DNA of 64,000 nt from Bryobacteraceae bacterium (GTDB lineage Bacteria; Acidobacteriota; Terriglobia; Bryobacterales; Bryobacteraceae): assembly GCA_050010255.1 (NCBI GenBank), contig JBEKLJ010000001.1:960-64959 (forward strand). Direction: 5' to 3'. Within the stretch, counting starts at the first letter, position 1. Each line of letters begins with the position of its first letter. The notes under the pieces were generated by a model. The model saw only the letters and a list, made by a program, of their open reading frames with translations, was not told the origin of the DNA and searched no databases. A program made the position numbers and the translations under genes. Positions 10,245 through 62,346 of the stretch are shown here, one piece after another.

Positions 10245-11027
10245 CTACTGTGGCGCCGAGAAATGCGCGCGGCGGTTCTTCTGCCAGCAGTCCTCGTTAT
10301 GCTCGGTGCAGACCGGCCGCTCCTTGCCGTAGCTGATGGTTCGCAGTTGCTCCACCGGAACGCCGAGCTGCACGAGAAAGTCTCTGACCGCCGTGGCGCG
10401 GCGGTCGCCCAGGCCCAGGTTGTACTCCGCCGACCCGCGCTCGTCGCAGTGGCCCTCGATCACCACCGTCGCCCCCGGGATTTCGGCGAAAACCCGCCTC
10501 AATGCGTCGGCGTCCTGCGTCAGCACCGCTCGCGCATCCTCGCGTATGTCGCTCTTGTCGTAATCGAAGTAGGCGTCTTGCACCTCGCCCTCCAACATCT
10601 GGGTCAAGGTCCTCTTCGGCGGCGGCGGTGGCGGCGGCGGCGGTGGCGACGGAATCGTTACGTTCACCGTGGCGCTGGCGCCTTCGGTTCCTCCCGGACC
10701 CTTGGCCGAGAGAGTATAGGTCGTCGTGTCGCTGGGGGAAACCTCGCGGTTGCCCCGCGCGCTCACTGTGCCGACGCCGGGCATGATGGAAATATCGGTC
10801 GCATCCGACACCGACCAGCGGAGCGTCGCCGACTGGCCGCGCTCGATCGTCCCCGGCTCAGCCGTGAACTGAATCGCCGGCTTCGGCGGCGGCGGCGCCG
10901 GCGCTTCCTTCGGCGGCGGGGGTGGCGGCGGTGGCGGCGGGAGCACCTTCTTCTTGCATCCCGCCGCAAACAACATCAAGGAAACCGACAGTAATACGGC
11001 ACTGACCTTTCCCGTGTTCATCCTCAT
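10245..11027 (-). CDS. pal: peptidoglycan-associated lipoprotein Pal (OmpA-like) with extra beta-sandwich domain and poly-Pro linkers
   Basis: LFAAGC lipobox. GHCDERGSAEYNLGLGDRRA OmpA-like motif. Start at ATG 11027 or 11021 downstream of GGAGG. Confidence 0.9.
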   Translation of the reverse strand: MRMNTGKVSAVLLSVSLMLFAAGCKKKVLPPPPPPPPPPKEAPAPPPPKPAIQFTAEPGTIERGQSATLRWSVSDATDISIMPGVGTVSARGNREVSPSDTTTYTLSAKGPGGTEGASATVNVTIPSPPPPPPPPPPKRTLTQMLEGEVQDAYFDYDKSDIREDARAVLTQDADALRRVFAEIPGATVVIEGHCDERGSAEYNLGLGDRRATAVRDFLVQLGVPVEQLRTISYGKERPVCTEHNEDCWQKNRRAHFSAPQ

Positions 11028-15102: not shown

Positions 15103-17220
<2,118 letters not shown>

Positions 17221-27780: not shown

Positions 27781-27858
27781 TCAGACGGGGACGCGCCGGC
27801 GCAGCACTTCCACCGCCCGCCAGACGTATCCCAGACCGCTCCAGACGGTCGCTGCAGC
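27781..27858 (-). pseudogene. displaced ancestral 3' end of pgsA (AAATVWSGLGYVWRAVEVLRRRVPV*)
   Basis: Translating the minus strand gives a tail homologous to the current pgsA C-terminus (AAAATVWSGLVYVWRGISLVRRR...). It is separated from pgsA by the HEPN/MNT insert. Confidence 0.7.
27818..27852. repeat. 35-bp direct repeat, left copy (pgsA 3'-end sequence)
   Basis: CGCCAGACGTATCCCAGACCGCTCCAGACGGTCGC matches 28714-28748 with 1 mismatch. Confidence 0.9.
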
Positions 27859-27861
27859 GGA

Positions 27862-28275
27862 TCAGATCAGGGCCGCTGCCGGCAAGACCCGCCGGATGGC
27901 GCTGCGAACCTCCTGTGCAACCTCGACGGCTTCGGAAGCCTCCTCCGCCGTGATCGGCTCCCAGTCCCCGGGGTAGCGCGCTTCGACCGAGTACCGATTC
28001 AGCATCAACACACGGCCGAATTCGAGCCGGAGCGTCGCGGGTTCGGAAAGGGCTTGGAAAAGCACTCGCAAATCGTGCGTCCTGGGGCAGTCCACGCCGA
28101 TCCATGCCAGGAGGCCTTTCAGGTATTTCTCCGCACACTGCTGCGCGTGGAAGCACACGGTGTCATAGGGACAATCCTCCGCCAGGGTCAGGGTGTGCTG
28201 TGCGTTGCGAAGATCGTTCTCAGCCTTGCGGACCCACTGCCGAACGAGCTCGACATCACCGGGCGCTGCGCTCAT
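27862..28275 (-). CDS. HEPN domain protein (toxin of a HEPN/MNT module)
   Basis: 137 aa. AENDLRNA...CFHAQQCAEKYLKGLL...RTHDL...ARYPGD HEPN pattern. 20-nt overlap with the upstream MNT gene. Confidence 0.85.
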   Translation of the reverse strand: MSAAPGDVELVRQWVRKAENDLRNAQHTLTLAEDCPYDTVCFHAQQCAEKYLKGLLAWIGVDCPRTHDLRVLFQALSEPATLRLEFGRVLMLNRYSVEARYPGDWEPITAEEASEAVEVAQEVRSAIRRVLPAAALI

Positions 28276-28603
28276 AGAGTACTTCGCCCTCTTTGGCCGC
28301 CGGCTCGATCAGTGTGCCTCTCCGGGTGCGGTTTCTCTCGAACTCCTCCGGGGTGACGACGATGACGTCGGCCGGCAGGTCCACTCCGATCAGCACGGCA
28401 TCTATGGCCGTGGCCTGTTTCCGCCGCGACCCTTCGACGCGCATCACCACCAGCAGGTCGGCGTCGCTATCTTCCGTGGCTGTGCCCCGCGCGTGGGAAC
28501 CGAAGAGAATGATCTTCTCGGGATGGAAGCGGTCGGCGATCCGCCGCGCCATCTCCTGGATTCGCCCGCGTGCGGGATTTGGGTTGCGATGGGCGGTACT
28601 CAT
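28256..28603 (-). CDS. minimal nucleotidyltransferase (MNT antitoxin)
   Basis: 115 aa. LFGSHARGTATEDSDADLLVV (GSxxRG...DxD) motif. Confidence 0.85.
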   Translation of the reverse strand: MSTAHRNPNPARGRIQEMARRIADRFHPEKIILFGSHARGTATEDSDADLLVVMRVEGSRRKQATAIDAVLIGVDLPADVIVVTPEEFERNRTRRGTLIEPAAKEGEVLYERSAR

Positions 28604-28640
28604 CCTTCAACGCCCTTTCAACACCATATTAGCAGCCGCA

Positions 28641-29228
28641 TTAGCCGCCGTTCTGAAGGCCCTTATCGCTTCCCATCTGCGCCGCCGCCCGCCTACGCAC
28701 CAGGCTGATGCCGCGCCAGACGTATACCAGACCGCTCCAGACGGTCGCGGCGGCGGCCGCCCAGAGCGGCCACTGAACGGGGACCTTCCAGTGAGGGAAG
28801 GCGCCGGCCGTCAGCACCGTGATCGCGGCCACAATCTGGAACAGGGTGCTGATCTTGCCCCAGACGCTGGGAGGGAAACTGCGGTGGGAGGTGAACAGCA
28901 GAGCCGCGGCGGCCAGGGCCAGAATCAGCACGTCGCGCCCGAAGACGACCAGGACCACCCAGAGCGGCACGGCGCCGGCGGCGCCCAGCGCGAGATAGGT
29001 GGCGCTGAGCAAAACCTTGTCCGCCACGGGGTCGAGATACGCGCCCAGGCGCGTGACGGAGTGCAGCCACCGGGCCAGCAGGCCGTCCAGAACATCGGTG
29101 GCGCCAGCCACGGCCACGATCGCCAGGGCGCGGCCGAACCGCCCCTGGAGAATCGCCCAGACCGCCAGCGGCGTGAGCGCCAGCCGCGTGAGCGTTACCA
29201 GGTTCGGAAGGTCGAGCATCCGCCGCAT
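28641..29228 (-). CDS. pgsA: CDP-diacylglycerol--glycerol-3-phosphate 3-phosphatidyltransferase
   Basis: 195 aa. DVLDGLLAR...GAYLDPVADK CDP-alcohol phosphatidyltransferase motif. The last ~24 codons are supplied by the inserted DNA. Confidence 0.85.
   Translation of the reverse strand: MRRMLDLPNLVTLTRLALTPLAVWAILQGRFGRALAIVAVAGATDVLDGLLARWLHSVTRLGAYLDPVADKVLLSATYLALGAAGAVPLWVVLVVFGRDVLILALAAAALLFTSHRSFPPSVWGKISTLFQIVAAITVLTAGAFPHWKVPVQWPLWAAAAATVWSGLVYVWRGISLVRRRAAAQMGSDKGLQNGG
28714..28748. repeat. 35-bp direct repeat, right copy (inside the current pgsA)
   Basis: Matches 27818-27852 with 1 mismatch. Confidence 0.9.
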
Positions 29229-30367: not shown

Positions 30368-32971
30368 ATGGCCCGCCCCCGCCTGTTTTTGATTGACTCC
30401 TTCGGGTTCATCTTCCGCGCCTTCCACGCCCGGGCGCGCTCGGGAGCGCCCCCCATGCGCACCAGCGCCGGTGTGCCCACCGAGGCGGTCTACATCTTCA
30501 CCAACATGCTGCGAAAGCTGACGGCGGCCTACGGGCCGGAGTACATGGCCGCGGTGTTCGAGAGCGTGGGCCCGACGTTCCGCGAGCAGGAGTTCGCCGA
30601 CTACAAGGCCAACCGGGAGGAGATGCCGGCGGAGCTGGCCCAGCAGATTCCCTGCATACGGCGGCTGCTGGAGGCCATGCGCATCCCGATCCTGGCCTAT
30701 GAAGGTTTCGAGGCCGATGACGTGATCGGCGCCATCGCGCGGCGGGCCGAGCAGGCCGGAGCGGAGGTGGCCATCGTCTCTAGCGACAAGGACCTCCTGC
30801 AACTAGTGGACGAGCACGTTGCGGTCTTCAATCCCATTCAGGAGGATCTTTGGTACGACCCGGCCAAGGTCGAGGAGAAGATGGGGGTCAGGCCGCAGCA
30901 GGTGGCCGACCTGCTGGCGCTCAAGGGCGACCCGAGCGACAACATCCCCGGGGCGCCGGGCATCGGCGACAAGGGCGCGCGCGAGCTGGTCGCGCGTTTC
31001 GGATCGGTGGAAGCGGCGCTGGATCGCGCCGCCGAGCTGGGCGACAAGGGTCACGACAAACGCTACCGCGAGAGCCTGGAGCAGAACCGCGACCGCATCC
31101 TGCTGAGCAAGCGCCTGGCCACGATCGACACCTCGGCGCCGATCGGCTTCTCCATGGAGGCGGTGCGGACACAGCCGGAGGACACCGCCGCGCTGAAGCA
31201 ACTCTACAAGGAACTGGAGTTCTACAGTCTGGTCGAGCAGCTCGGGCCGGAGGAAGACCAGCGCCCGCGCGACTACGCCGCGCTGGAAACGCCGGCGGCG
31301 ATCGAGGAGTACCTAGCGTCGATTCCGGCGGATGCGCCGGTGGCCGTGGCGGTCACGCCGGCCGCGCCGGCGGGTCCGGGGATGTTCGAGAGCGGCTCGC
31401 CAGCGGTTCTGGGGCTGACCTGGAAGCTGGGGCAGGCGCGCACGGCGGCGGGGACGCTCATCGAGCCTCTGCGAGGGTTGCTGGAGGACCCGGCGCGGGG
31501 GAAGATCGCGCACGACCTCAAGCGCGTGTGCCTGGAGCTGGCCCATCTCGGCATCGAGCCGCGCGGCCTCGAGCAGGACGTGATGCTTTACGCCTTCCTG
31601 CTCAACGCCGATCCCGCGGGCTGCTCGCTGGAGACGCTGGCGCGGCGCTACCTGGACCGCAAGCTCGAGCCGCTAGTCGAGCACCAGGCTGATTGCGCGC
31701 TCGCGCTGGCCGCCAGGCTCGGCCGCGAGGTGGATGAACGGGGGTTCCGCAAGCTATACCAGACCATCGACCTGCCGCTGGTGCGCGTGCTGACCCGGAT
31801 GGAGCAGCGCGGGATTCGCGTCCAGCCGGCCGCCATGCACCGTCTCTCACAAGCCATGGACACCGAGATCCAGCGGCTGACGGGGGAGATCCATGAGCTT
31901 GCCGGCCGGACCTTCAACATCAACTCCCCGCAGCAGCTCGGCAAGGTGCTGTTCGAGGATCTGCGTCTGCCGGCGCCCGTGAAATATGGCAAGGGCAAGA
32001 CCATCTCGACCGCGGCGGACGTGCTCGAGGAACTGGCCGCCGATTACGAGATCTGCCGCAAGGTGCTCGACTACCGCCAGCTCGTCAAGCTCAAGGGCAC
32101 TTACGTGGACGCGCTGCCGGCGCTGGTCAACCCGGCTACCGGCCGGCTGCACACCAGCTTCAACCAGACCGGCGCGGCGACAGGCCGCCTTTCCTCCTCC
32201 AACCCGAACCTCCAGAACATTCCGATCCGCACCGAACTGGGCCGCGAGATTCGCGCCGCGTTCATCCCGCGGGAAGACTGGAAGCTGGTGCTGGCGGACT
32301 ATTCGCAGATCGAGCTGCGGCTGCTGGCGCACTTCTCCAAAGATCCGGTGCTCATAGAGGCCTTCCGCCACGGCGAGGACATTCACACGCGCACGGCGGC
32401 CGAGGTCTTCGGCGTGCTGCCGCTGATGGTGACGCCGGAGCTGCGGCGGCGGGCTAAGGCGGTGAACTTCGGCATCGTGTACGGACTGAGCTCGTTCGGG
32501 CTGGCGGCGCAGCTCGGCATCCCGCGGCCGGAGGCGCAGGCTTACATCGACCGGTACTTCGCGCGCTATGCGGGCGTGCGACGGTTCATCGACGAGACCA
32601 TCGCCGAGGTCAGGCGCGCCGGGTTCACCAGGACCCTGTTCGGCCGCGAGCGGCCCATCCCGGACATGAACAACCGCAACCCCAACCAGCGCGGCTTCGC
32701 CGAGCGGACCGCCGTAAACACGCCCCTCCAGGGAACCGCGGCGGACCTGATCAAGCTCGCCATGATCCAGATCGAAGCCGAGATCGAGCAGCGGAAGCTG
32801 CGCACAGCCATGCTGCTCCAGGTGCACGACGAGCTGCTGTTCGAAGCCCCGCCGGAAGAGCTGGAGGAGATCCGGAAGCTGGTCAAGGCCGGCATGGAGC
32901 AGGTGTGCCGGCTGGAGGTGCCGCTGGTGGCCGAAATCGGCGTGGGCGACAACTGGCGCGACGCCAAGTAG
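30368..32971 (+). CDS. polA: DNA polymerase I
   Basis: 867 aa with 5'-3' exonuclease N-terminus, 3'-5' exo-like region and pol domain (DYSQIELR, QVHDELLFE). Confidence 0.97.
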   Translation: MARPRLFLIDSFGFIFRAFHARARSGAPPMRTSAGVPTEAVYIFTNMLRKLTAAYGPEYMAAVFESVGPTFREQEFADYKANREEMPAELAQQIPCIRRLLEAMRIPILAYEGFEADDVIGAIARRAEQAGAEVAIVSSDKDLLQLVDEHVAVFNPIQEDLWYDPAKVEEKMGVRPQQVADLLALKGDPSDNIPGAPGIGDKGARELVARFGSVEAALDRAAELGDKGHDKRYRESLEQNRDRILLSKRLATIDTSAPIGFSMEAVRTQPEDTAALKQLYKELEFYSLVEQLGPEEDQRPRDYAALETPAAIEEYLASIPADAPVAVAVTPAAPAGPGMFESGSPAVLGLTWKLGQARTAAGTLIEPLRGLLEDPARGKIAHDLKRVCLELAHLGIEPRGLEQDVMLYAFLLNADPAGCSLETLARRYLDRKLEPLVEHQADCALALAARLGREVDERGFRKLYQTIDLPLVRVLTRMEQRGIRVQPAAMHRLSQAMDTEIQRLTGEIHELAGRTFNINSPQQLGKVLFEDLRLPAPVKYGKGKTISTAADVLEELAADYEICRKVLDYRQLVKLKGTYVDALPALVNPATGRLHTSFNQTGAATGRLSSSNPNLQNIPIRTELGREIRAAFIPREDWKLVLADYSQIELRLLAHFSKDPVLIEAFRHGEDIHTRTAAEVFGVLPLMVTPELRRRAKAVNFGIVYGLSSFGLAAQLGIPRPEAQAYIDRYFARYAGVRRFIDETIAEVRRAGFTRTLFGRERPIPDMNNRNPNQRGFAERTAVNTPLQGTAADLIKLAMIQIEAEIEQRKLRTAMLLQVHDELLFEAPPEELEEIRKLVKAGMEQVCRLEVPLVAEIGVGDNWRDAK
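32846..32971 (+). repeat. 126-bp direct repeat, copy 1 (last 41 codons plus stop of polA)
   Basis: Matches 34939-35064 with 3 mismatches, counted by hand. Confidence 0.95.
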
Positions 32972-32975
32972 TCAA

Positions 32976-33001
32976 AACCCGGGACAGTACACTCATTCAC
33001 C
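32976..33001 (+). repeat. 26-nt sequence AACCCGGGACAGTACACTCATTCACC, also present at 47448-47473
   Basis: 23 of 26 identical. Both copies lie just downstream of a plus-strand stop codon. Confidence 0.7.
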
Positions 33002-33031
33002 GCCGCGGACGCAGGCTGGCGCGCGCCTGGG

Positions 33032-33148
33032 CGCCGTCGGCGCCGCCCGAGCCGGGCGGAGGTCGAACAGGTGGTTGCGGACTATCAGGCGAGCGGGTTG
33101 AGCCGGAGCGCGTTCTGCCGGATGCACGGGCTGGCCCTGAGCACGCTG
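33032..33148 (+). pseudogene. IS66-family TnpA-like (helix-turn-helix accessory protein) N-terminal fragment
   Basis: RRRRRPSRAEVEQVVADYQASGLSRSAFCRMHGLALSTL resembles the N-termini of IS66 orfA-type proteins. Similarity stops after about 39 residues, and no tnpB or tnpC follows. Confidence 0.5.
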
Positions 33149-33203
33149 GGCGCGGCCCGTTGCGGCGGCGGCAGGTTCTTCCGCCGGCGACGGTGGAAGA
33201 GGG

Positions 33204-33812
33204 CTAAGGGGCGGCGCCGGCAGTTCGGAAAGCCTCCTTCGATAACTGGGTAGTTCTCGCGTTCCCGCCCACAACCGTGTGCAGTGTCACCGTGTACACG
33301 GCCCGCCCGGCCGCCTCGAAAACGAGCAACCTGTCGAATTCGGCGCAACTCCGGAGCTCGCGGAAGATGTCGCCATCGAGGTCCCAGTCGCTTCCGGAAC
33401 AGTACATGAGGCGATACTGACCGGCTGGGATGTTGCCTGCGCTCCCGGTAGTCCCTGACCGCACATAGAAGAACCGCGCGGCCCGGTCGGTCGTGCGGTC
33501 GACCAGTTTCACCGCGGCATCCTCCGGGGTGTGGTTCACGACGCTCAGATCGCCGGCGTCACCCTCTTCGAAATCCAGAAGGATCTCCGCGCCGGTGGGA
33601 GGCCGAAGGATGTCGTGCCGTGGTTGGCTGGTTTTGTGTTTGCGTTCTGGAGGGGCGGGCGTCGGGGTGTCGGACCTGCCCGGGCCGACGTCGGCGACCG
33701 GTTGTGGGACCGCCGGTGAGGCGTAGAAGATGAGCCCGATTGCTAGACCCACCACGACTCCGGCACCAACCCAAGTGGCGCGGTAGGTGGAGACGGAGAA
33801 GAACGGGATCAC
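33204..33812 (-). CDS. hypothetical membrane-anchored protein (TM, Pro-rich linker, about 110-aa beta-rich domain)
   Basis: 202-aa ORF with coherent, non-shadow composition. Last gene of the islet cassette. Confidence 0.6.
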   Translation of the reverse strand: MIPFFSVSTYRATWVGAGVVVGLAIGLIFYASPAVPQPVADVGPGRSDTPTPAPPERKHKTSQPRHDILRPPTGAEILLDFEEGDAGDLSVVNHTPEDAAVKLVDRTTDRAARFFYVRSGTTGSAGNIPAGQYRLMYCSGSDWDLDGDIFRELRSCAEFDRLLVFEAAGRAVYTVTLHTVVGGNARTTQLSKEAFRTAGAAP

Positions 33813-33901
33813 GGCTGTGAAGGTAGTCTGGCCGCAGAGTGGGGATTCTCAGGCTTTATTGCCCCAACGGGCCTGGGCGGCCACGGGCGGCGACACAACC
33901 T

Positions 33902-34228
33902 TCAAATGGATCGCAGAAGGACGACTACCCCGAGGGCGGCCAGGCCGAATAGGCCCAATGCGGCAGGAACCAGCCGGGCCAACCCGATGCCGAGCCGTTT
34001 CAGCGACACGTAGCCCAGGACAGCCGCTATCAGAAAATAGGCTGAAGCCTGCCCGAACGCCGCAGCGGCGGCGTTACGGGCGGTGAACCCGATGAGGGCA
34101 GCCAGCAGTACGAAGCCTACCCAGCACCAGACCGCAGCAGCGGTTAGAGTGTCCTGCAGATCGACATCGTCGCGGAACCGCGCCACCACAGAGCGGGCCA
34201 TCCAGTACCGATCGGTGAGACCCGTCAT
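33902..34228 (-). CDS. hypothetical small membrane protein (3 predicted TM)
   Basis: 108-aa ORF with hydrophobic segments AAAVWCWVGFVLLAALIGF, ASAYFLIAAVLGYVSL and LVPAALGLFGLAALGVVVLL. Confidence 0.55.
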   Translation of the reverse strand: MTGLTDRYWMARSVVARFRDDVDLQDTLTAAAVWCWVGFVLLAALIGFTARNAAAAAFGQASAYFLIAAVLGYVSLKRLGIGLARLVPAALGLFGLAALGVVVLLRSI

Positions 34229-34275
34229 GTCACTTTAGTGGGGCAGGCACTCGGGAACTCTCAGGGGTTCTTGCG

Positions 34276-34731
34276 CTATCGGGCCGGCCAGGGGAAAAAC
34301 GGGATCATCCTGATGTGGATCGCCCGTTCGTCGTCGACCTCCAACGGGAAAGCCCCCCAAGAGACGACATGGGCCCCAACTACCACAACGAGAATCAAAG
34401 CCATCAATGAGGCGGCGGCTCGCCAACCCTGACCCAACCCACCCTGACGGTAAGCCTCGACGGCGGCCGCTGGCACGGCAAGAAAGGCTTGCAACGGCAG
34501 CAGGACCTTGGTAATACTGCTGGCGAGGAAGACGTAAAATGCCGGCGAGGCCAGGACGAACCAATCCCACCGTCTGAGGAGCAGGCGGGCGTCTGCATAA
34601 GTCATGGCGATGCCCGGAACGATCAGAAACAGGACCCAAAGGACTCCCAGGGGCAAGGAGACGAGAATGACCGCCGCCGACCGAGTGAGGGTGCGGCGCA
34701 CTGGAAGGGAACGCGTCGGAGGCGCTGCCAT
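34276..34731 (-). CDS. hypothetical membrane protein (4 predicted TM)
   Basis: 151-aa ORF with four hydrophobic stretches. Same strand as its neighbours and closely spaced. Confidence 0.55.
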   Translation of the reverse strand: MAAPPTRSLPVRRTLTRSAAVILVSLPLGVLWVLFLIVPGIAMTYADARLLLRRWDWFVLASPAFYVFLASSITKVLLPLQAFLAVPAAAVEAYRQGGLGQGWRAAASLMALILVVVVGAHVVSWGAFPLEVDDERAIHIRMIPFFPWPAR

Positions 34732-34785
34732 GGATCGCAGGGACTGTCCTCTCTAGACCGCAGTGGCGAGCGGGGGTTCAGGATC

Positions 34786-34899
34786 TCAGGCCTTTTTTCG
34801 CCACCGGGCTTTGGCGGCCTTCCGGGCCAAGCCTTTGCGCTCGGCCGGCGTAAGGTTCTTGCGGCTGTTCGCGCCGCCTCTAGTCCCCAACTCGGCCAT
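34786..34899 (-). CDS. possible 37-aa Lys/Arg-rich peptide (MAELGTRGGANSRKNLTPAERKGLARKAAKARWRKKA)
   Basis: ATG at 34899, first ORF of the islet cassette. The LTPxERxxxARKAAxARW-type basic tail recurs in small phage- or plasmid-borne proteins (from memory, not verified). Confidence 0.35.
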   Translation of the reverse strand: MAELGTRGGANSRKNLTPAERKGLARKAAKARWRKKA

Positions 34900-34938
34900 G
34901 ACTGCAGAAATCGTGTCGGGGCCGGGTGGAGTGCGCTC

Positions 34939-35064
34939 GCCCCGCCGGAAGAGCTGGAGGAGATCCGCACGCTGGTCAAGGCCGGCATGGAGCAGGTGTG
35001 CCGGCTCGAGGTGCCGCTGGTGGCCGAAATCGGCGTGGGCGACAACTGGCGCGACGCCAAGTAG
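34939..35064 (+). pseudogene. 126-bp direct repeat, copy 2: orphan duplicate of the polA 3' end
   Basis: Encodes APPEELEEIRTLVKAGMEQVCRLEVPLVAEIGVGDNWRDAK* with no polA sequence upstream. Confidence 0.95.
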
Positions 35065-35185
35065 CGGCCCGGCGGGCACAACGCCCGGCAGAAGAATCGC
35101 GTCACGCGGAGGTTCGCCAGCAAGATCACCGCTGGAAGCGCCGCGAGCAAGACCGTCCGGCGAAAGTGCGGCGGAGCCGCCTAGC

Positions 35186-35218
35186 CCGCATTTCTCACCA
35201 CGACTGTGGCGAGGCGCG
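35186..35218 (+). repeat. diverged, inverted copy of the 3'-UTR repeat family (CCGCATTTCTCACCA...GGCGCG)
   Basis: The first 15 nt are identical to the minus-strand reading of the 44625-44660 copy; about 25 of 33 match overall. Confidence 0.5.
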
Positions 35219-35500
35219 ACGAGAGCGCTGCAAAAGCGCCCAGCGACGCCACAACGCGCGCTCGCGGTCCGCGCCGGGTTGTGGCGCGGGCTTTGCCGTT
35301 GTTTGGCATCCGCAAACGGACAGCCTGCCGCCTCGACACTCCTACGAAAGTGGCCGCCTAAGTTGTTGATTCCGCGTACTGGGGAATCCGCGACCACTTT
35401 CATTCGCCGTTGTGGTCCGCACGGACCATGGCTCACTCGTGTCGAGGGCTCCGCGCGCATCGACAGGCGGCTGGCCGCTAACCGTGCGGCAGGCCGGGGC

Positions 35501-35527
35501 GCGCCGCAGCAGATTGCTGGTGAAACA
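35501..35527 (-). repeat. 27-nt repeat GCGCCGCAGCAGATTGCTGGTGAAACA (copy 2)
   Basis: Identical to 395-421. Lies 22 nt downstream of the stop of the 35549-35926 gene. Confidence 0.9.
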
Positions 35528-35548
35528 TCCGCGTTGGCGCCCGCGCGG

Positions 35549-35926
35549 CTAGCGCCGCCGCTGGGCGTCATGCTTCTGACGATAGATCTGCCGGCTGAGG
35601 CGGTTCTGCGCCCGGTTCACGCGGCGCCGCTCGGCCGGCGTCAGCCTGCCGCCGCTGTCGCGCCGGTCCCGCGCGATCTCACGATTCAGGCGCGCCTCCC
35701 GGCGCTCCAGGCGCGCGGCCTCGGCCGCGGTGAGGCTGCCGCTGGCGACCCCCGTCGCGATCCGCCTCTGCTGGTTCTCGCCGCGTTGCTGGATCCTCTG
35801 CGCGAAGCCCGGCGCGGCCAGCGCCGCCGTCGGCATCACGCCTGAAGAACGCACCGCCCGTGCGAAAAAGGCTTCGGATGCCGGCGTAGCCGCGCGGAAG
35901 GCGAAGGGAGGCAGATTCCGGTCCAC
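35549..35926 (-). CDS. hypothetical protein, Arg/Gln-rich helical (LTAAEAARLERREARLNREIARDRRDSGGRLTPAERRRVNRAQNRLSRQIYRQKHD)
   Basis: 125-aa ORF with an internally repeated LTxAExxRxxRxQ pattern. The start codon is uncertain. Confidence 0.5.
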   Translation of the reverse strand: MDRNLPPFAFRAATPASEAFFARAVRSSGVMPTAALAAPGFAQRIQQRGENQQRRIATGVASGSLTAAEAARLERREARLNREIARDRRDSGGRLTPAERRRVNRAQNRLSRQIYRQKHDAQRRR

Positions 35927-35974
35927 GTAGGGTGGTGCCTTGAGTTCACTCGTCTCGTGGAGTACCCTCGTAGC

Positions 35975-36346
35975 ATGAAATCACTCAGCTTCGCGCTCCT
36001 TCTCTGTTTTGCTGCCGCGTCGATTTGTGCGGCCGAGAAAAAATACAATTGGGAGCGGGCGAGAGTCCTCTCCCAAAACATGCATTCTTCGCCGGTGGGT
36101 GCCTACGCCGCTCCAATTGGGAACGCGACAATTGCGGTTCCCATCTACCGAAGATCCAATTATGTCGTGGTCGAAACTGACACACATCGTCTCGAATGGA
36201 GCGAAGTGGGGTCTTCCGCGATAATTCTCCCGGTTAATGGCTCCATCGAGTTCTACCGTGACGGAAATTGGTTCATTGTTCTGGACTCGAAGAAGAAGAA
36301 GCATAAGTTCGCCTTGGTCGGAATGACCCTGAAGACGGATAAGTAG
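35975..36346 (+). CDS. hypothetical small secreted protein
   Basis: MKSLSFALLLCFAAASICAAE signal peptide from ATG 35975. Visibly AT-richer codon usage than the flanks. Confidence 0.6.
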   Translation: MKSLSFALLLCFAAASICAAEKKYNWERARVLSQNMHSSPVGAYAAPIGNATIAVPIYRRSNYVVVETDTHRLEWSEVGSSAIILPVNGSIEFYRDGNWFIVLDSKKKKHKFALVGMTLKTDK

Positions 36347-36764
36347 GATATCCGTCTCACAACAGTTCCGATTCTCTGCCATTCAACGGACCCGTTGCAT
36401 GAGAGATAACATCGCCCTCCCATTCGCCCGCTTTCGCTCGTCAAGGTCATTCGGATATATTCAGCCGGGTTGTCCATCTTGGAGCACTCGGAACGGCAGA
36501 CGGGACTCCAACCCGCGACATCCAGCATGGGGAAGCGCTCACACTTCACAAGAGAACGAATTTGACGCACAACCACGGCTCTCTGTGGATTTGGGAACCT
36601 CACCGAGTTTTCAAGACGTCATGTTCCCAGCGCCCGAATGGGGGCACAGCAAAGCCACGACTTCACACCTGACCTGCCCATTCCCGCCTCCGGGCCATCA
36701 AACGCGGCGGCCGAGGCACCCTCACGATGCTACCACCCTTTGCGCCGTCGGCTGCATGCGCTCG

Positions 36765-37223
36765 TTAGGTGGCGTTCTTCGGAACTTTGGCACCCAGCCT
36801 GCTGGTGATGAGGTCCCAGCGTTCTCGATAATTGTCTGCGTCGCGGTCGAGAATCCAGTACATGAGGCGTTTCCATTCTGGCTTCAACCACGAGGCGACG
36901 AGATTCGAAGGAACGATGAAGACATCTGGGAGTTGATTCGGATGATCCCCCTTGAGGTCCACAAAGGCATAGAAGATAGAGTCGCCCCGCAAGTCCAAGG
37001 CTTTCCTTCCAACATCCCATTCCCAGCGATCTTTGCGCCGCGCACTGCTCGCGGTCTTCACCTGGAATGACACCGCAGCTTGCCCCTTCAAGTCTCCGAC
37101 CATAAGGTCGACCGTTGGAGATCCACCGCGGGTGAGGGCTACCGGGTATCCCATCACAGAGAACCTGTACGCGACGAAGTGCTCGCCCGCCGCTCCCGTG
37201 AGTGCTGTCGCTCGATTGGGCAT
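36765..37223 (-). CDS. hypothetical protein, PD-(D/E)xK / DUF4365-like nuclease fold candidate
   Basis: GAAGEHFVAYRFSVMGYPVA...TVDLMVGD...VSFQVKT fits the G-x-GE...D...(E/Q)xK layout of restriction-endonuclease-like folds. Confidence 0.45.
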   Translation of the reverse strand: MPNRATALTGAAGEHFVAYRFSVMGYPVALTRGGSPTVDLMVGDLKGQAAVSFQVKTASSARRKDRWEWDVGRKALDLRGDSIFYAFVDLKGDHPNQLPDVFIVPSNLVASWLKPEWKRLMYWILDRDADNYRERWDLITSRLGAKVPKNAT

Positions 37224-37291
37224 GTAAACCAGAACCTCCGTTTTGGCTTCTTACCGCCTTGCATTGTACCAGCCATTTCCCTCCGACCCGC

Positions 37292-37870
37292 GACGTCGAG
37301 CTTGAGAACTGGCTAGGCAACTGGCTGCACCACTGCGCGCCCGGCGCTAACGACAGTAAGCAACGCGCGCGTAGCGGTTACCAACTGGTGTACTTCAAGG
37401 GCGGTTACGTCCTGCACATGTTGCGAATGATGCTTCACGACTTCGCGCGCAACGACGACTCCCGCTTCATCGCCATGATGCGTGAATTCGCTTCCACCTT
37501 CCAGAACCGGAACGCCTCGACCGAGGACTTCAAGGCGATCGTCGATCGCCACTTTCGCGCCGACATGCGCTGGTTCTTCGACCAGTGGGTGTACGGGACC
37601 GAAGTGCCGAAAATCACGGTGGAGTATTCATTGACTGATAGCGAGCAGGGCGCGATGTTCGCGGGCACCCTTCGCCAGCGCGGCGTCTCGCCGGAGTTCC
37701 GCGTCATCATGCCCGTCGTGTTCCGCTTCAAGGCTGGCGGCGCCGTCGCCCGGATCACCGCCACGGGCGCGGCGACGCCTTCCCAGTTCCAGTTGCCAGA
37801 GCGGCCCGAGTCGGTCGAGTTCAATCCGCTGGACGCCGTCCTCTGCGAGCTGGAGGTAAAGCGGATGTGA
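37292..37870 (+). pseudogene. M1-family aminopeptidase, C-terminal fragment (5'-truncated)
   Basis: QLVYFKGGYVLHMLRMML (conserved Tyr region that follows the catalytic domain) plus a C-terminal domain. No HExxH-containing N-terminal part lies upstream. Confidence 0.6.
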
Positions 37871-37962
37871 GGTTTCGGCGAGGGTGCCCCCGGGGTGGCT
37901 CGGCGCGCCACTCGCGGCGACCGCGGCCGCCGCTGCGGCCGTGCTATAGTGGGCCATCCCTT

Positions 37963-60672: not shown

Positions 60673-62346
60673 ATGAAAAGAACTTTGTTAGTGGCTGTTC
60701 TTCTCGGGCTGGCTGCGGGGGTCATGAGTTCCCCGGCTGCAGCCCAAGCAGGCTCCAACAGCCTGGATGTCCAACTGCTTCAAGCCGCTGGCAACGGCGA
60801 TACGGCAGCGGTTCAGCAACTCCTGGACAAGGGTGCCAACATCGAGGCCAGGGACGAGTACGGTCGCACGCCATTGATGCTTGCGGTCGAATATCAGGAC
60901 CGGACCGAGATTGCGAAGCTGCTCCTGGACAAGGGAGCCAACATCGAAGCCAAAGCTAGTGTTTCTCCCTATGAGGGATGGACAGCATTGATTTTTGCGG
61001 CCAACGGGGGCAAGGTTGAGATTGCGAAGCTGCTCCTGGACAAGGGAGCCAACATCGAAGCCAAAGCTAGTGTTTCTCCCCATGAGGGATGGACGGCATT
61101 GTTTTTTGCGGCCAACGGCGGCAAGGTTGAGGCTGCGAAGCTGCTTCTGGAGAAGGGAGCCAACATCGAGTCCAAGGACCGCCGCGGCTACACGGCGCTA
61201 GCGTGGGCGAAAATGCAGAGTGAAAGCGACGAAGGAGTTCTGAAGCTGTCTCCGGGCCACCCACTTTATCAGCGAATATTATCCAATCAGATAGAGGTGG
61301 TCCATCTATTGGAGCAGGCCATTGCGAAGAACCCTCAAAGTGCTCTTGCCGAGTCCGCCAGTGCTCTTCAGAGGCGACCCTATGATGAGGCCTTGGGTGA
61401 AAAGGTATTCAAGCTTGCTGCCAGCCTCCCGGCGCTTCCCCCTGTTCCGGAAGAGGCCCGCCAGCTCTTTCTTCAGGCTTCGGCGCTGATGAAACAGGCA
61501 AACATTCCCGATGATTTTGTCAAACCCATTGAACTGCTGGAGAAGGCCCTGGTAATCGCCCCTTGGTGGGGCAACGCCTACTACAACCTGTCGCGCGCTC
61601 TGGAACTGAGCGGGCAGTACGACGAAGCCGTGAAGCAGTTGAACTACTACATCGAGCTGAGCCCTTCGGAAGCCGATGCAACCGAGGCCCGCGCCCACAT
61701 CTCTGTGATTCAGGCAGAGAAGGAGGCTGCTGCGCAAAAGAAGCGGGAGAACGAGGGTGTGCTGGCTGTGAAGTACGTGAGCGGCGGCATAACCCGCCAG
61801 CGCTATTCCGAAGTGCCCGCATGGTGGCATGAATCCGGCAGAGTAGACGCCCTTTATACGTATATGCTCCCGGAAGAGGGCCCGTTTTACGTTAACGTCT
61901 TCCGCATGCCTAGAGGCCACCTTCTCACCATTAGTCTGTTCGCGCTATCCAGCAATGGTGCTTACACGGGCGACCAAATTGCTGTCTATGCCTGGGATGA
62001 AACCAAGGGTGGCTGCTCCGAGGGTTATATGTTTGCATTTGGCGCGCACAGCTACACAGATGCTTGCGGGGTTCACTACGACGTAAGCGTTTCGAATCAG
62101 CCGAATGCAATCGTGACGGTTACGTACACGCCTACCGGCGCTTTCGTCACGATTCCGGTGGCTTTGCTCTATCGAGGCCGAGTGCTCAAGGTGGGTTGGG
62201 ACTCGACTGGAACAGTTTATCAGGGTAGCCACGACAAAGGCGTAGAGGTGCTGCACTTCGATGGAAGTATGGTCGAAGCGGCGAAGAACCCTAACGTAAA
62301 CGCCATGGGTCTGACGCCCACTAGCGTGATTCCGCACAAGAAGTAG
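60673..62346 (+). CDS. secreted ankyrin-repeat / TPR protein with unknown C-terminal domain
   Basis: Signal peptide MKRTLLVAVLLGLAAGVMSSPAAAQA after GGGAGGGG. At least four ANK units (GRTPLMLAV...LLLDKGANIEA). TPR (WWGNAYYNLSRALELSGQYDEAVKQ). Confidence 0.85.
   Translation: MKRTLLVAVLLGLAAGVMSSPAAAQAGSNSLDVQLLQAAGNGDTAAVQQLLDKGANIEARDEYGRTPLMLAVEYQDRTEIAKLLLDKGANIEAKASVSPYEGWTALIFAANGGKVEIAKLLLDKGANIEAKASVSPHEGWTALFFAANGGKVEAAKLLLEKGANIESKDRRGYTALAWAKMQSESDEGVLKLSPGHPLYQRILSNQIEVVHLLEQAIAKNPQSALAESASALQRRPYDEALGEKVFKLAASLPALPPVPEEARQLFLQASALMKQANIPDDFVKPIELLEKALVIAPWWGNAYYNLSRALELSGQYDEAVKQLNYYIELSPSEADATEARAHISVIQAEKEAAAQKKRENEGVLAVKYVSGGITRQRYSEVPAWWHESGRVDALYTYMLPEEGPFYVNVFRMPRGHLLTISLFALSSNGAYTGDQIAVYAWDETKGGCSEGYMFAFGAHSYTDACGVHYDVSVSNQPNAIVTVTYTPTGAFVTIPVALLYRGRVLKVGWDSTGTVYQGSHDKGVEVLHFDGSMVEAAKNPNVNAMGLTPTSVIPHKK
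60907..61128 (+). repeat. tandem duplication, 2 x 111 bp, inside the ankyrin gene
   Basis: Units 60907-61017 and 61018-61128 differ at 4 positions. A third, more diverged unit starts at 61129. Confidence 0.95.

Follow-up and report, generated by a model that had tools for sequence, protein, structure and literature searches.

A duplicated polA 3' end

The DNA analysed here, a 64,000-nt stretch of contig JBEKLJ010000001.1 from a Bryobacteraceae bacterium (GenBank GCA_050010255.1, positions 960 to 64,959; hereafter the window), carries the 3' end of polA twice in the same orientation, with a small insert between the two copies. polA itself (30368-32971, plus strand) is an intact open reading frame (ORF) for a DNA polymerase I of 867 aa with the Pfam domains 5_3_exonuc_N, 5_3_exonuc and DNA_pol_A; the protein is MGD0199139.1, and its source metagenome-assembled genome (MAG) is labelled Bryobacteraceae bacterium. 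Copy 1 of the repeat (32846-32971, plus strand) is the in-frame end of this gene, 41 codons and the TAG stop, and copy 2 (34939-35064, plus strand) is an orphan tail with no polA-like sequence 5' of it. The direct repeat measures 126 nt with a start-to-start spacing of 2093 nt, and its copies differ at three repeat positions, 30, 32 and 69, where copy 1 has the allele G30/A32/G69 and copy 2 has C30/C32/C69; between these sites the identity is uninterrupted, in perfect runs of 29, 36 and 57 nt. Two of the changes from copy 1 to copy 2 are silent (CGG>CGC and CTG>CTC), and the remaining one, AAG>ACG, replaces K with T, so that EEIRKLV in copy 1 reads EEIRTLV in copy 2. An initial annotation of this DNA had described the duplication in just these terms, from its coordinates, length and three mismatches to the lack of polA before copy 2 and the altered peptide, and we confirm all of them.

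The repeat starts at a codon boundary directly 3' of a conserved motif, QVHDELLFE, and its last three bases are the TAG stop; the flanks beyond the stop codon are unrelated between the two copies. Because a self-comparison of the 64 kb returned only two further repeats of at least 50 nt, the polA-tail repeat is far beyond chance. A third, degenerate polA tail, which would have been a sign of tandem accretion, was found neither in the strain-specific block downstream of copy 2 (region D, see below) nor elsewhere in the window. The repeat contains the E. coli Chi octamer, of which the window has 15 occurrences; we attach no meaning to it.

Unoccupied loci in close relatives

The closest species-level genomes have PolA C-termini that are 77-81% identical to that of the window. 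A nearer lineage, L218 (JGI 3300049914), diverges from the window by about 3-4.6%: its flanks are 95-96.5% identical, and its polA is of equal length with a 3.0% nucleotide difference. There the order is lpxC, polA, 200 nt, an intact 793-aa M1 peptidase and DsbA, with no insert and no repeat. In L234/L235/L236 (GCA_050008815.1), polA is followed by 119 nt and then DsbA, and here too there is no insert and no repeat, nor is there a peptidase. Relatives with an empty site, which the initial annotation had suggested looking for, therefore exist in L218 and L234/L235, and the arrangement is not one that all relatives have in common. These lineages can occur in the same sample series, as L225 and L234 both come from 3300018018.

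The interval between polA and dsbA thus has three contents in three lineages that are ~96-97% identical (L218 11009-13682; L235 1018-1135; window 32972-37962), and this space is a variable spot, where gene turnover is locally concentrated just downstream of an essential gene. A blastn comparison with L218 shows that a 4.4-kb block of the window (32972-37370) has taken the place of the intergenic DNA together with the first ~1.9 kb of the M1 peptidase gene. The block is made up of the inserted DNA (B, 32972-34938, 1967 nt), which is absent from L218 and L234/L235 (blastn against L218 and L235), copy 2 with 12 native nucleotides attached, and region D. The 12 nucleotides (35065-35076, plus strand) were recognised by comparison with the relatives as native polA downstream sequence: 11 of the 12 match the post-stop sequence of L234/L235/L236, and the first five are also common to L218. 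Copy 1, on the other hand, is followed by foreign DNA from the first base past its TAG. Elsewhere in the window, no further large insertions or deletions were seen against the contigs of close relatives.

Support from independent assemblies

Both junctions of the insert recur in other metagenome assemblies, on contigs from different samples and assemblers that are 99.99-100% identical to the window. The junction from polA through copy 1 into the insert is also present in L081 and L239, and that from the insert into copy 2 in L081, L221, L230 and L233, with L081 and L221 reading on into the downstream DNA. L081 (JGI 3300038451, 21.4 kb) equals window 21305-42740 save one base and holds the whole structure; L239 (JGI 3300018020) spans polA, copy 1 and the insert, and L221 (ENA ERZ27250073) spans the insert, copy 2 and the downstream DNA on one contig, whilst L230 and L233 cover the join of the insert with copy 2 and have the copy-2 variants. 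As the structure is recovered in at least three independent metagenome assemblies, an assembly artefact is very unlikely, whether two strains had been collapsed or chimerically joined or a free circle of 2.1 kb had been drawn into the chromosome. Such an error deserves thought, since every contig here is from a metagenome assembly, 126 is k-1 at the widely used k=127, and one sample gave both a contig that skips the insert (L223) and a separate contig with the insert (L230). However, three assemblies have the left junction and three to five have the right one, and they differ in sample and assembler; either junction goes with its own repeat allele; L221 and L239 each cross one end; and the copies, which differ at three sites, are not a collapsed k-mer overlap. 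The possibility of a collapse, raised when the repeat was first noted, is thus not supported.

The insert-skipping contig calls for caution of a different kind. L223 (JGI 3300018025), the only contig of this population that seems to show an empty site, joins polA straight to the DNA behind copy 2, and its polA part is 100% identical over 934 nt with the copy-1 allele G30/A32/G69. This contig may have arisen through a shortcut in assembly, or it may reflect a deletion of the RecA type. A shortcut may apply because the assembly of the same sample also has the insert on a contig of its own, L230 (window 33031-35006), which breaks off at repeat position 68. Perhaps coverage failed at 33030/33031, so that the 59-nt stub after copy 1 would have been clipped as a tip; the 57-nt identical stretch would then have led the assembler out of copy 1 and straight into the downstream DNA, skipping the insert. 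Should L223 be real, its allele agrees with a RecA-type deletion in which the exchange fell to the right of site 69, and not with precise excision at an upstream core, which would restore the copy-2 allele. No contig with a circle junction was seen among the assemblies. In practical terms, an assembler's shortcut through a short identical stretch can mimic a contig from an 'empty site'. We also observed that L221 and L230, from independent assemblies, start within one base of each other at 33030/33031, in a stretch of ~85% GC with a small palindrome; three other assemblies read through this point.

The two copies as two alleles

Within the 126 nt, L218 and L235 differ at four sites (9, 30, 32 and 69), and the window copies differ at three of these four lineage-polymorphic sites. 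At sites 30 and 69 each copy's nucleotide also occurs in one relative; at site 32 the A of copy 1 is common to L235, and the C of copy 2 is unique among these lineages. The probability that three random changes would all fall on those four sites is ~1e-5, or 3e-4 if third-codon positions alone are counted. Judging from this pattern, the two copies are two natural alleles of the polA tail, and, together with the boundary at the stop codon, the pattern argues that one copy arrived with foreign DNA and is not a decayed local duplicate. A later overwriting of copy 1 by ordinary allelic recombination is conceivable, but would leave the coincidence of the boundary unexplained. The earlier proposal that the incoming DNA carried a surrogate polA 3' end is therefore supported on three sides, by the unoccupied relatives, the native sequence after copy 2 and the distinct alleles. 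The polarity of the mismatches, assessed with one outgroup, had suggested an exchange inside the repeat; we withdrew this argument when a second outgroup showed the sites to be polymorphic.

Content of the insert

The insert has a GC content of 65%, near the 66% of the window. Close to its polA-proximal end lies the stub of an IS66-family tnpA (33056-33151, plus strand; ~32 of 79 residues), which matches NCBIfam NF047593 at E 3.1e-7 and 30.8 bits (cutoff 28) over profile positions 4-35 of 79, and has no Pfam match at E<=0.01. The stub reported in the initial annotation is thus real but small, and its homology starts ~85 nt after the polA stop. TnpB, TnpC and other transposase domains are absent from the insert. 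DNA and protein searches for this IS66 left end in plasmids gave no match, no terminal inverted repeats were identified at the insert ends, and scans there for promoters, terminators and inverted repeats returned nothing above expectation.

All other ORFs of the insert lie on the minus strand. Of the four that had been listed, three (202, 108 and 141/151 aa) are credible, as they are called in other assemblies, and the fourth (37 aa) is doubtful. orf202 (33204-33812, 202 aa; called in L081, L221, L230 and L239) has a hydrophobic N-terminal segment, and is probably a membrane protein, with a C-terminal domain of ~125 aa that is widespread and unnamed: 1635 remote homologues at E<=1e-3 are 30-45% identical, aligned mainly to residues ~70-195, and some of them bear a DnaJ N-terminus. 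These remote homologues give no context on the donor or a parent element. orf108 (33902-34228, 108 aa; called in four assemblies) and orf151 (34276-34731, with a 141-aa version at 34276-34701; called in several assemblies) are small, hydrophobic and probably also membrane proteins. orf37 (34786-34899) is a doubtful small basic ORF with a marginal PHROG match (E 0.008), which gene callers extend antisense through copy 2 to 205-261 aa, a version that is probably spurious. For none of the four was there a convincing match in Pfam, NCBIfam, PHROG or PADLOC.

Among ~15 billion proteins, the cargo ORFs occur at >=90% identity in this population only; orf202 and orf151 have no close homologue outside their own cluster, and neither a donor nor a larger parent element was found via the cargo proteins. 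The suggestion that the cargo might sit next to a polA 3' duplicate in other genomes was not borne out, as it was seen in no other genome or context. This absence elsewhere argues against an actively spreading element.

Searches for a recombinase and for recurrence at polA

No integrase, resolvase or transposase is encoded among the ORFs of the insert, which confirms its description as integrase-less. The JGI gene calls for 21.3-42.7 kb contain no recombinase, and neither does the rest of the window in ORFs of at least 200 aa at E<=1e-8 (in one scan, with 25 of 27 families). Further integrases flanked by similar repeats, which the initial annotation had proposed to seek in the rest of the genome, are not found in the 64-kb window. 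We also compared ~215 PolA loci from genomes, metagenomes and viral contigs, a limited sampling, in which none of 16 Bryobacteraceae genomes and ~200 other PolA loci had an element with an integrase inserted at polA; nor was there a partner element with a cognate integrase beside polA in the loci of the 16 Bryobacteraceae genomes and the metagenome and viral loci examined. The literature that we searched holds no report of polA as an attachment site. The site-specificity put forward in the initial annotation is thus not demonstrated, as there is no integrase in the insert or the 64 kb and no recurrence at the same boundary, and for an islet that is still mobilisable we found no positive evidence.

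A single other polA-tail duplication was seen among the ~215 loci, and its boundary differs. In L003 (MFD03044.bin.2.17, a Bryobacteraceae-type long-read MAG), the polA 3' end is duplicated at 10272-11011 and 16226-16965, over 737-740 nt, and the repeat ends 6-9 nt past the polA stop. It encloses 5.2 kb of chromosomal genes (an Rrf2 regulator, a broken outer-membrane barrel gene and a PIG-L deacetylase) with no integrase, and its exchange interval lies 183-678 nt before the stop, as against 57-94 nt at most in the window, without overlap. Copy 1 of L003 is followed by a mutated 5' half of tRNA-Thr(CGT), and the intact tRNA lies ~1 kb after copy 2.

Several other candidates were discarded. A tRNA-linked integration was rejected, as the window has no tRNA or tRNA-Thr remnant, though L002 and L004 have tRNA-Thr right after polA; an Rfam scan of 30-40 kb gave nothing relevant. 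Viral contigs with a polA tail as a phage attachment site (attP) were sought, and those retrieved contain only phage PolA genes of at most 56% identity. A metagenome scan with the copy-2 peptide gave chance matches, the best relatives among the matches listed being 71-75% identical. Two short PolA C-terminal proteins from long contigs were examined as possible orphan tails: P0049/L228 proved to be a fragment due to a frameshift in a long-read assembly, and P0031/L226-L227 a partial gene at contig ends. The latter contigs come from two samples of a related lineage, with a PolA tail 83% identical, and both (L226 1-567 and L227 1-567) have their first base at one and the same position, 564 nt ahead of the polA stop; the shared start could be another repeat boundary inside polA, or a coincidence of graph structure.

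How the insert could have arrived

The polA repeat is a real recombination scar with no recombinase of its own, and a fairly ordinary piece of strain variation. We read it as an insertion-duplication scar of the Campbell type, driven by homology across the shared polA tail, and put the probability of this reading at about 0.5. In such a course of events, DNA of ~2.1 kb from a related lineage, carrying its own allele of the last 41 polA codons followed by a few small genes, would have recombined once with the chromosomal polA tail, either as a circular molecule, in one reciprocal exchange with the chromosome, or in an equivalent homology-anchored event. The exchange would have been made by host homologous recombination on the shared tail, which offers 57 nt of uninterrupted identity; the threshold for RecA-type exchange is roughly 25-50 nt of identity. 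The product would be an intact polA ending in copy 1, the cargo, and an orphan tail, copy 2, running into native downstream DNA. The insert would now be passive cargo, losable only via recombination between the copies. The circular intermediate, and recombination of a RecA-type rather than a site-specific kind, are what we infer from the structure. The repeat would end exactly at the stop codon because the homology between donor and recipient ends there; indeed, past the stop the sequences of the window, L218 and L235 cease to match after 5-12 nt.

Several points weigh against a homology-driven origin. Integrase-driven elements classically enter the 3' end of a housekeeping gene and bring a surrogate end with them. 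The homology-driven reading gives no account of how a circle with exactly 41 polA codons would form or get into the cell. Mismatch polarity says nothing on an exchange within the repeat, with sites 30 and 69 polymorphic among lineages, and our recombinase check covered only 64 kb of the genome. The evidence from L003 comes from an error-prone long-read MAG, in which the mismatch pattern may reflect long-read errors. A neighbouring insertion, the MNT/HEPN cassette described below, has a 43-nt repeat that, with at most 22 nt of perfect identity, is a poor RecA substrate and looks more like an att identity block.

The main rival is a less probable account, in which the insert is the remnant, or a mini-version mobilised in trans, of a site-specific integrative element with its attachment site in the polA 3' end and an attP carrying the surrogate 41 codons, the integrase having decayed or being supplied by a related element elsewhere in the genome. 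The insert would then be an islet that could still excise, and the IS66 stub would mark its erosion. Much of the architecture agrees with this: the repeat consists of a gene end and goes no further than the stop codon, its upstream copy makes the gene complete, most of the differences in the surrogate are silent, and relatives have empty sites. The IS remnant shows decay in the insert, and the MNT/HEPN cassette 4 kb away likewise has its 43-nt repeat in another housekeeping gene's 3' end, with a sharp, att-like drop in identity. However, no integrase, excisionase or other recombinase is encoded in either insert or in the 64 kb, and the 16 Bryobacteraceae genomes and ~200 other PolA loci show neither an integrase-bearing polA element nor a recurrent boundary; the one further duplication, in L003, has a 737-nt repeat and housekeeping cargo. 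The confinement of the cargo to this population also speaks against it, as does the lack of a report of polA as an att site in the literature searched, and L223, the apparent empty allele, carries the copy-1 allele, which is not expected from precise excision at an upstream core. An unlikely origin, to our minds, is a purely local duplication, in which foreign DNA was captured at a staggered break past the polA stop and fill-in of the overhangs duplicated 126 nt, the copies then diverging or copy 1 being overwritten by an imported allele. This would need neither a surrogate tail nor a recombinase, an arbitrary stagger would suit repeat lengths of 43, 126 and 737 nt, and the 2.4% divergence between the copies was reckoned to lie within the window-L218 range of 3-4.6%. 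On the other hand, the repeats end at +0 (window) and +6 to +9 (L003) of the stop, which is unlikely for arbitrary breaks in an intergenic space of ~120-200 nt and is expected if inter-lineage homology ends there; all three differences fall on lineage-polymorphic sites and two are silent, unlike random pseudogene decay; and we know of no bacterial insertion mechanism with target duplications this long.

Comparison with known systems

An integration scar with a duplicated gene end is of a known type; what is unusual is polA as the target gene, and the recombinase is uncertain. In the icd gene of Escherichia coli, the prophages e14 and phage 21 bring a surrogate 3' end, the displaced end being left as the icdC pseudogene; these prophages measure 15-40 kb and have their own tyrosine integrase and excisionase. 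The window shares with them an insertion in the 3' end of a housekeeping gene, surrogate codons, an intact gene, an orphan tail and mostly silent differences, but its insert is only 2 kb and has no recombinase, no recurrent position and no evidence of excision. Descriptively, the insert also resembles the cis-mobilisable elements (CIMEs) at the fda 3' end of Streptococcus thermophilus, which are flanked by att sites, lack recombination genes, and are derived from or mobilised by the integrative and conjugative elements (ICEs) ICESt1 and ICESt3; they share att sites of ~27 nt with the same-species ICEs that supply the integrase. Here, too, there is a small integrase-less insert between direct repeats of a gene 3' end, yet no partner element was found in our case and the repeat is 126 nt.

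The likeness to Campbell-type insertion, as with suicide plasmids, and to homology-facilitated illegitimate recombination lies in a repeat that is the homologous segment itself, of arbitrary length and made with no dedicated recombinase, in copies that correspond to donor and recipient alleles, and in an outer boundary where homology ends. Such cases are mostly laboratory observations, however, and a natural source of circles carrying exactly a gene tail and its downstream neighbours is undocumented here; the 43-nt repeat of the neighbouring cassette is also short for RecA. As for IS66 elements, the likeness is limited to the TnpA-like stub of 32 residues on the polA side of the insert; TnpB and TnpC are missing, and neither inverted repeats nor an 8-bp target duplication were recognised. 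IS66 transposition was discarded as the source of the repeat, since 126 nt cannot be a transposition footprint.

The locus documents the gain of a small block of foreign genes behind an essential gene, which remains undisrupted, by DNA without a recombinase of its own, in a host from a poorly studied, uncultured soil phylum. Orphan gene tails such as copy 2 are an easily read mark in the sequence of earlier gene transfer and of recombination hot spots. Should the second cassette have arisen in this way too, insertion guided by gene tails might be one of the regular routes by which these genomes gain genes on a small scale.

A second cassette and other features of the window

This second integrase-less insertion relative to L218 lies 4 kb upstream, at 27861-28713, between repeats at 27818-27860 and 28714-28756. 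Its repeat is an imperfect one of 43 nt, with three mismatches and a longest perfect identity of 22 nt, and lies within the 3' end of the gene for a CDP-alcohol phosphatidyltransferase (28641-29228, minus strand). The gene gains a new, longer tail (195 vs 183 aa), and its old 37-nt tail is orphaned at 27781-27817; at the cassette, sequence identity falls sharply from 93% to unrelated sequence. The cassette encodes a toxin-antitoxin pair, MNT (28256-28552) and HEPN (27862-28275). We could speculate, although we hold it to be rather improbable, that the polA insert and this cassette belong to an undescribed class of recombinase-less mini-cassettes of ~1-2 kb, which would carry surrogate housekeeping-gene tails as portable homology or as an att site, dock in those 3' ends via a recombinase in trans or host recombination, and seed variable spots behind essential genes in Acidobacteriota.

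Downstream of copy 2, region D (35077-37370) is a second strain-specific block, delimited by blastn against L218 and by GC content, its core having 56% GC vs 66% for the window. It contains an ORF with a signal peptide (35975-36346) and one of a phage family (36765-37223, minus strand; phrog_29029, E 1.6e-18), and is followed by the 3' remnant of the M1 aminopeptidase gene (37371-37870, plus strand), the gene that is intact in L218. Self-comparison of the window also revealed a tandem duplication of ~111 nt at 60907-61169, seen as a 152-nt overlapping match of 95% identity. Lastly, a 33-nt sequence at 393-425 recurs with one mismatch at 35499-35531, within region D; the contigs L222 and L224 end beside the latter copy, and the sequence thus behaves like a dispersed short repeat.

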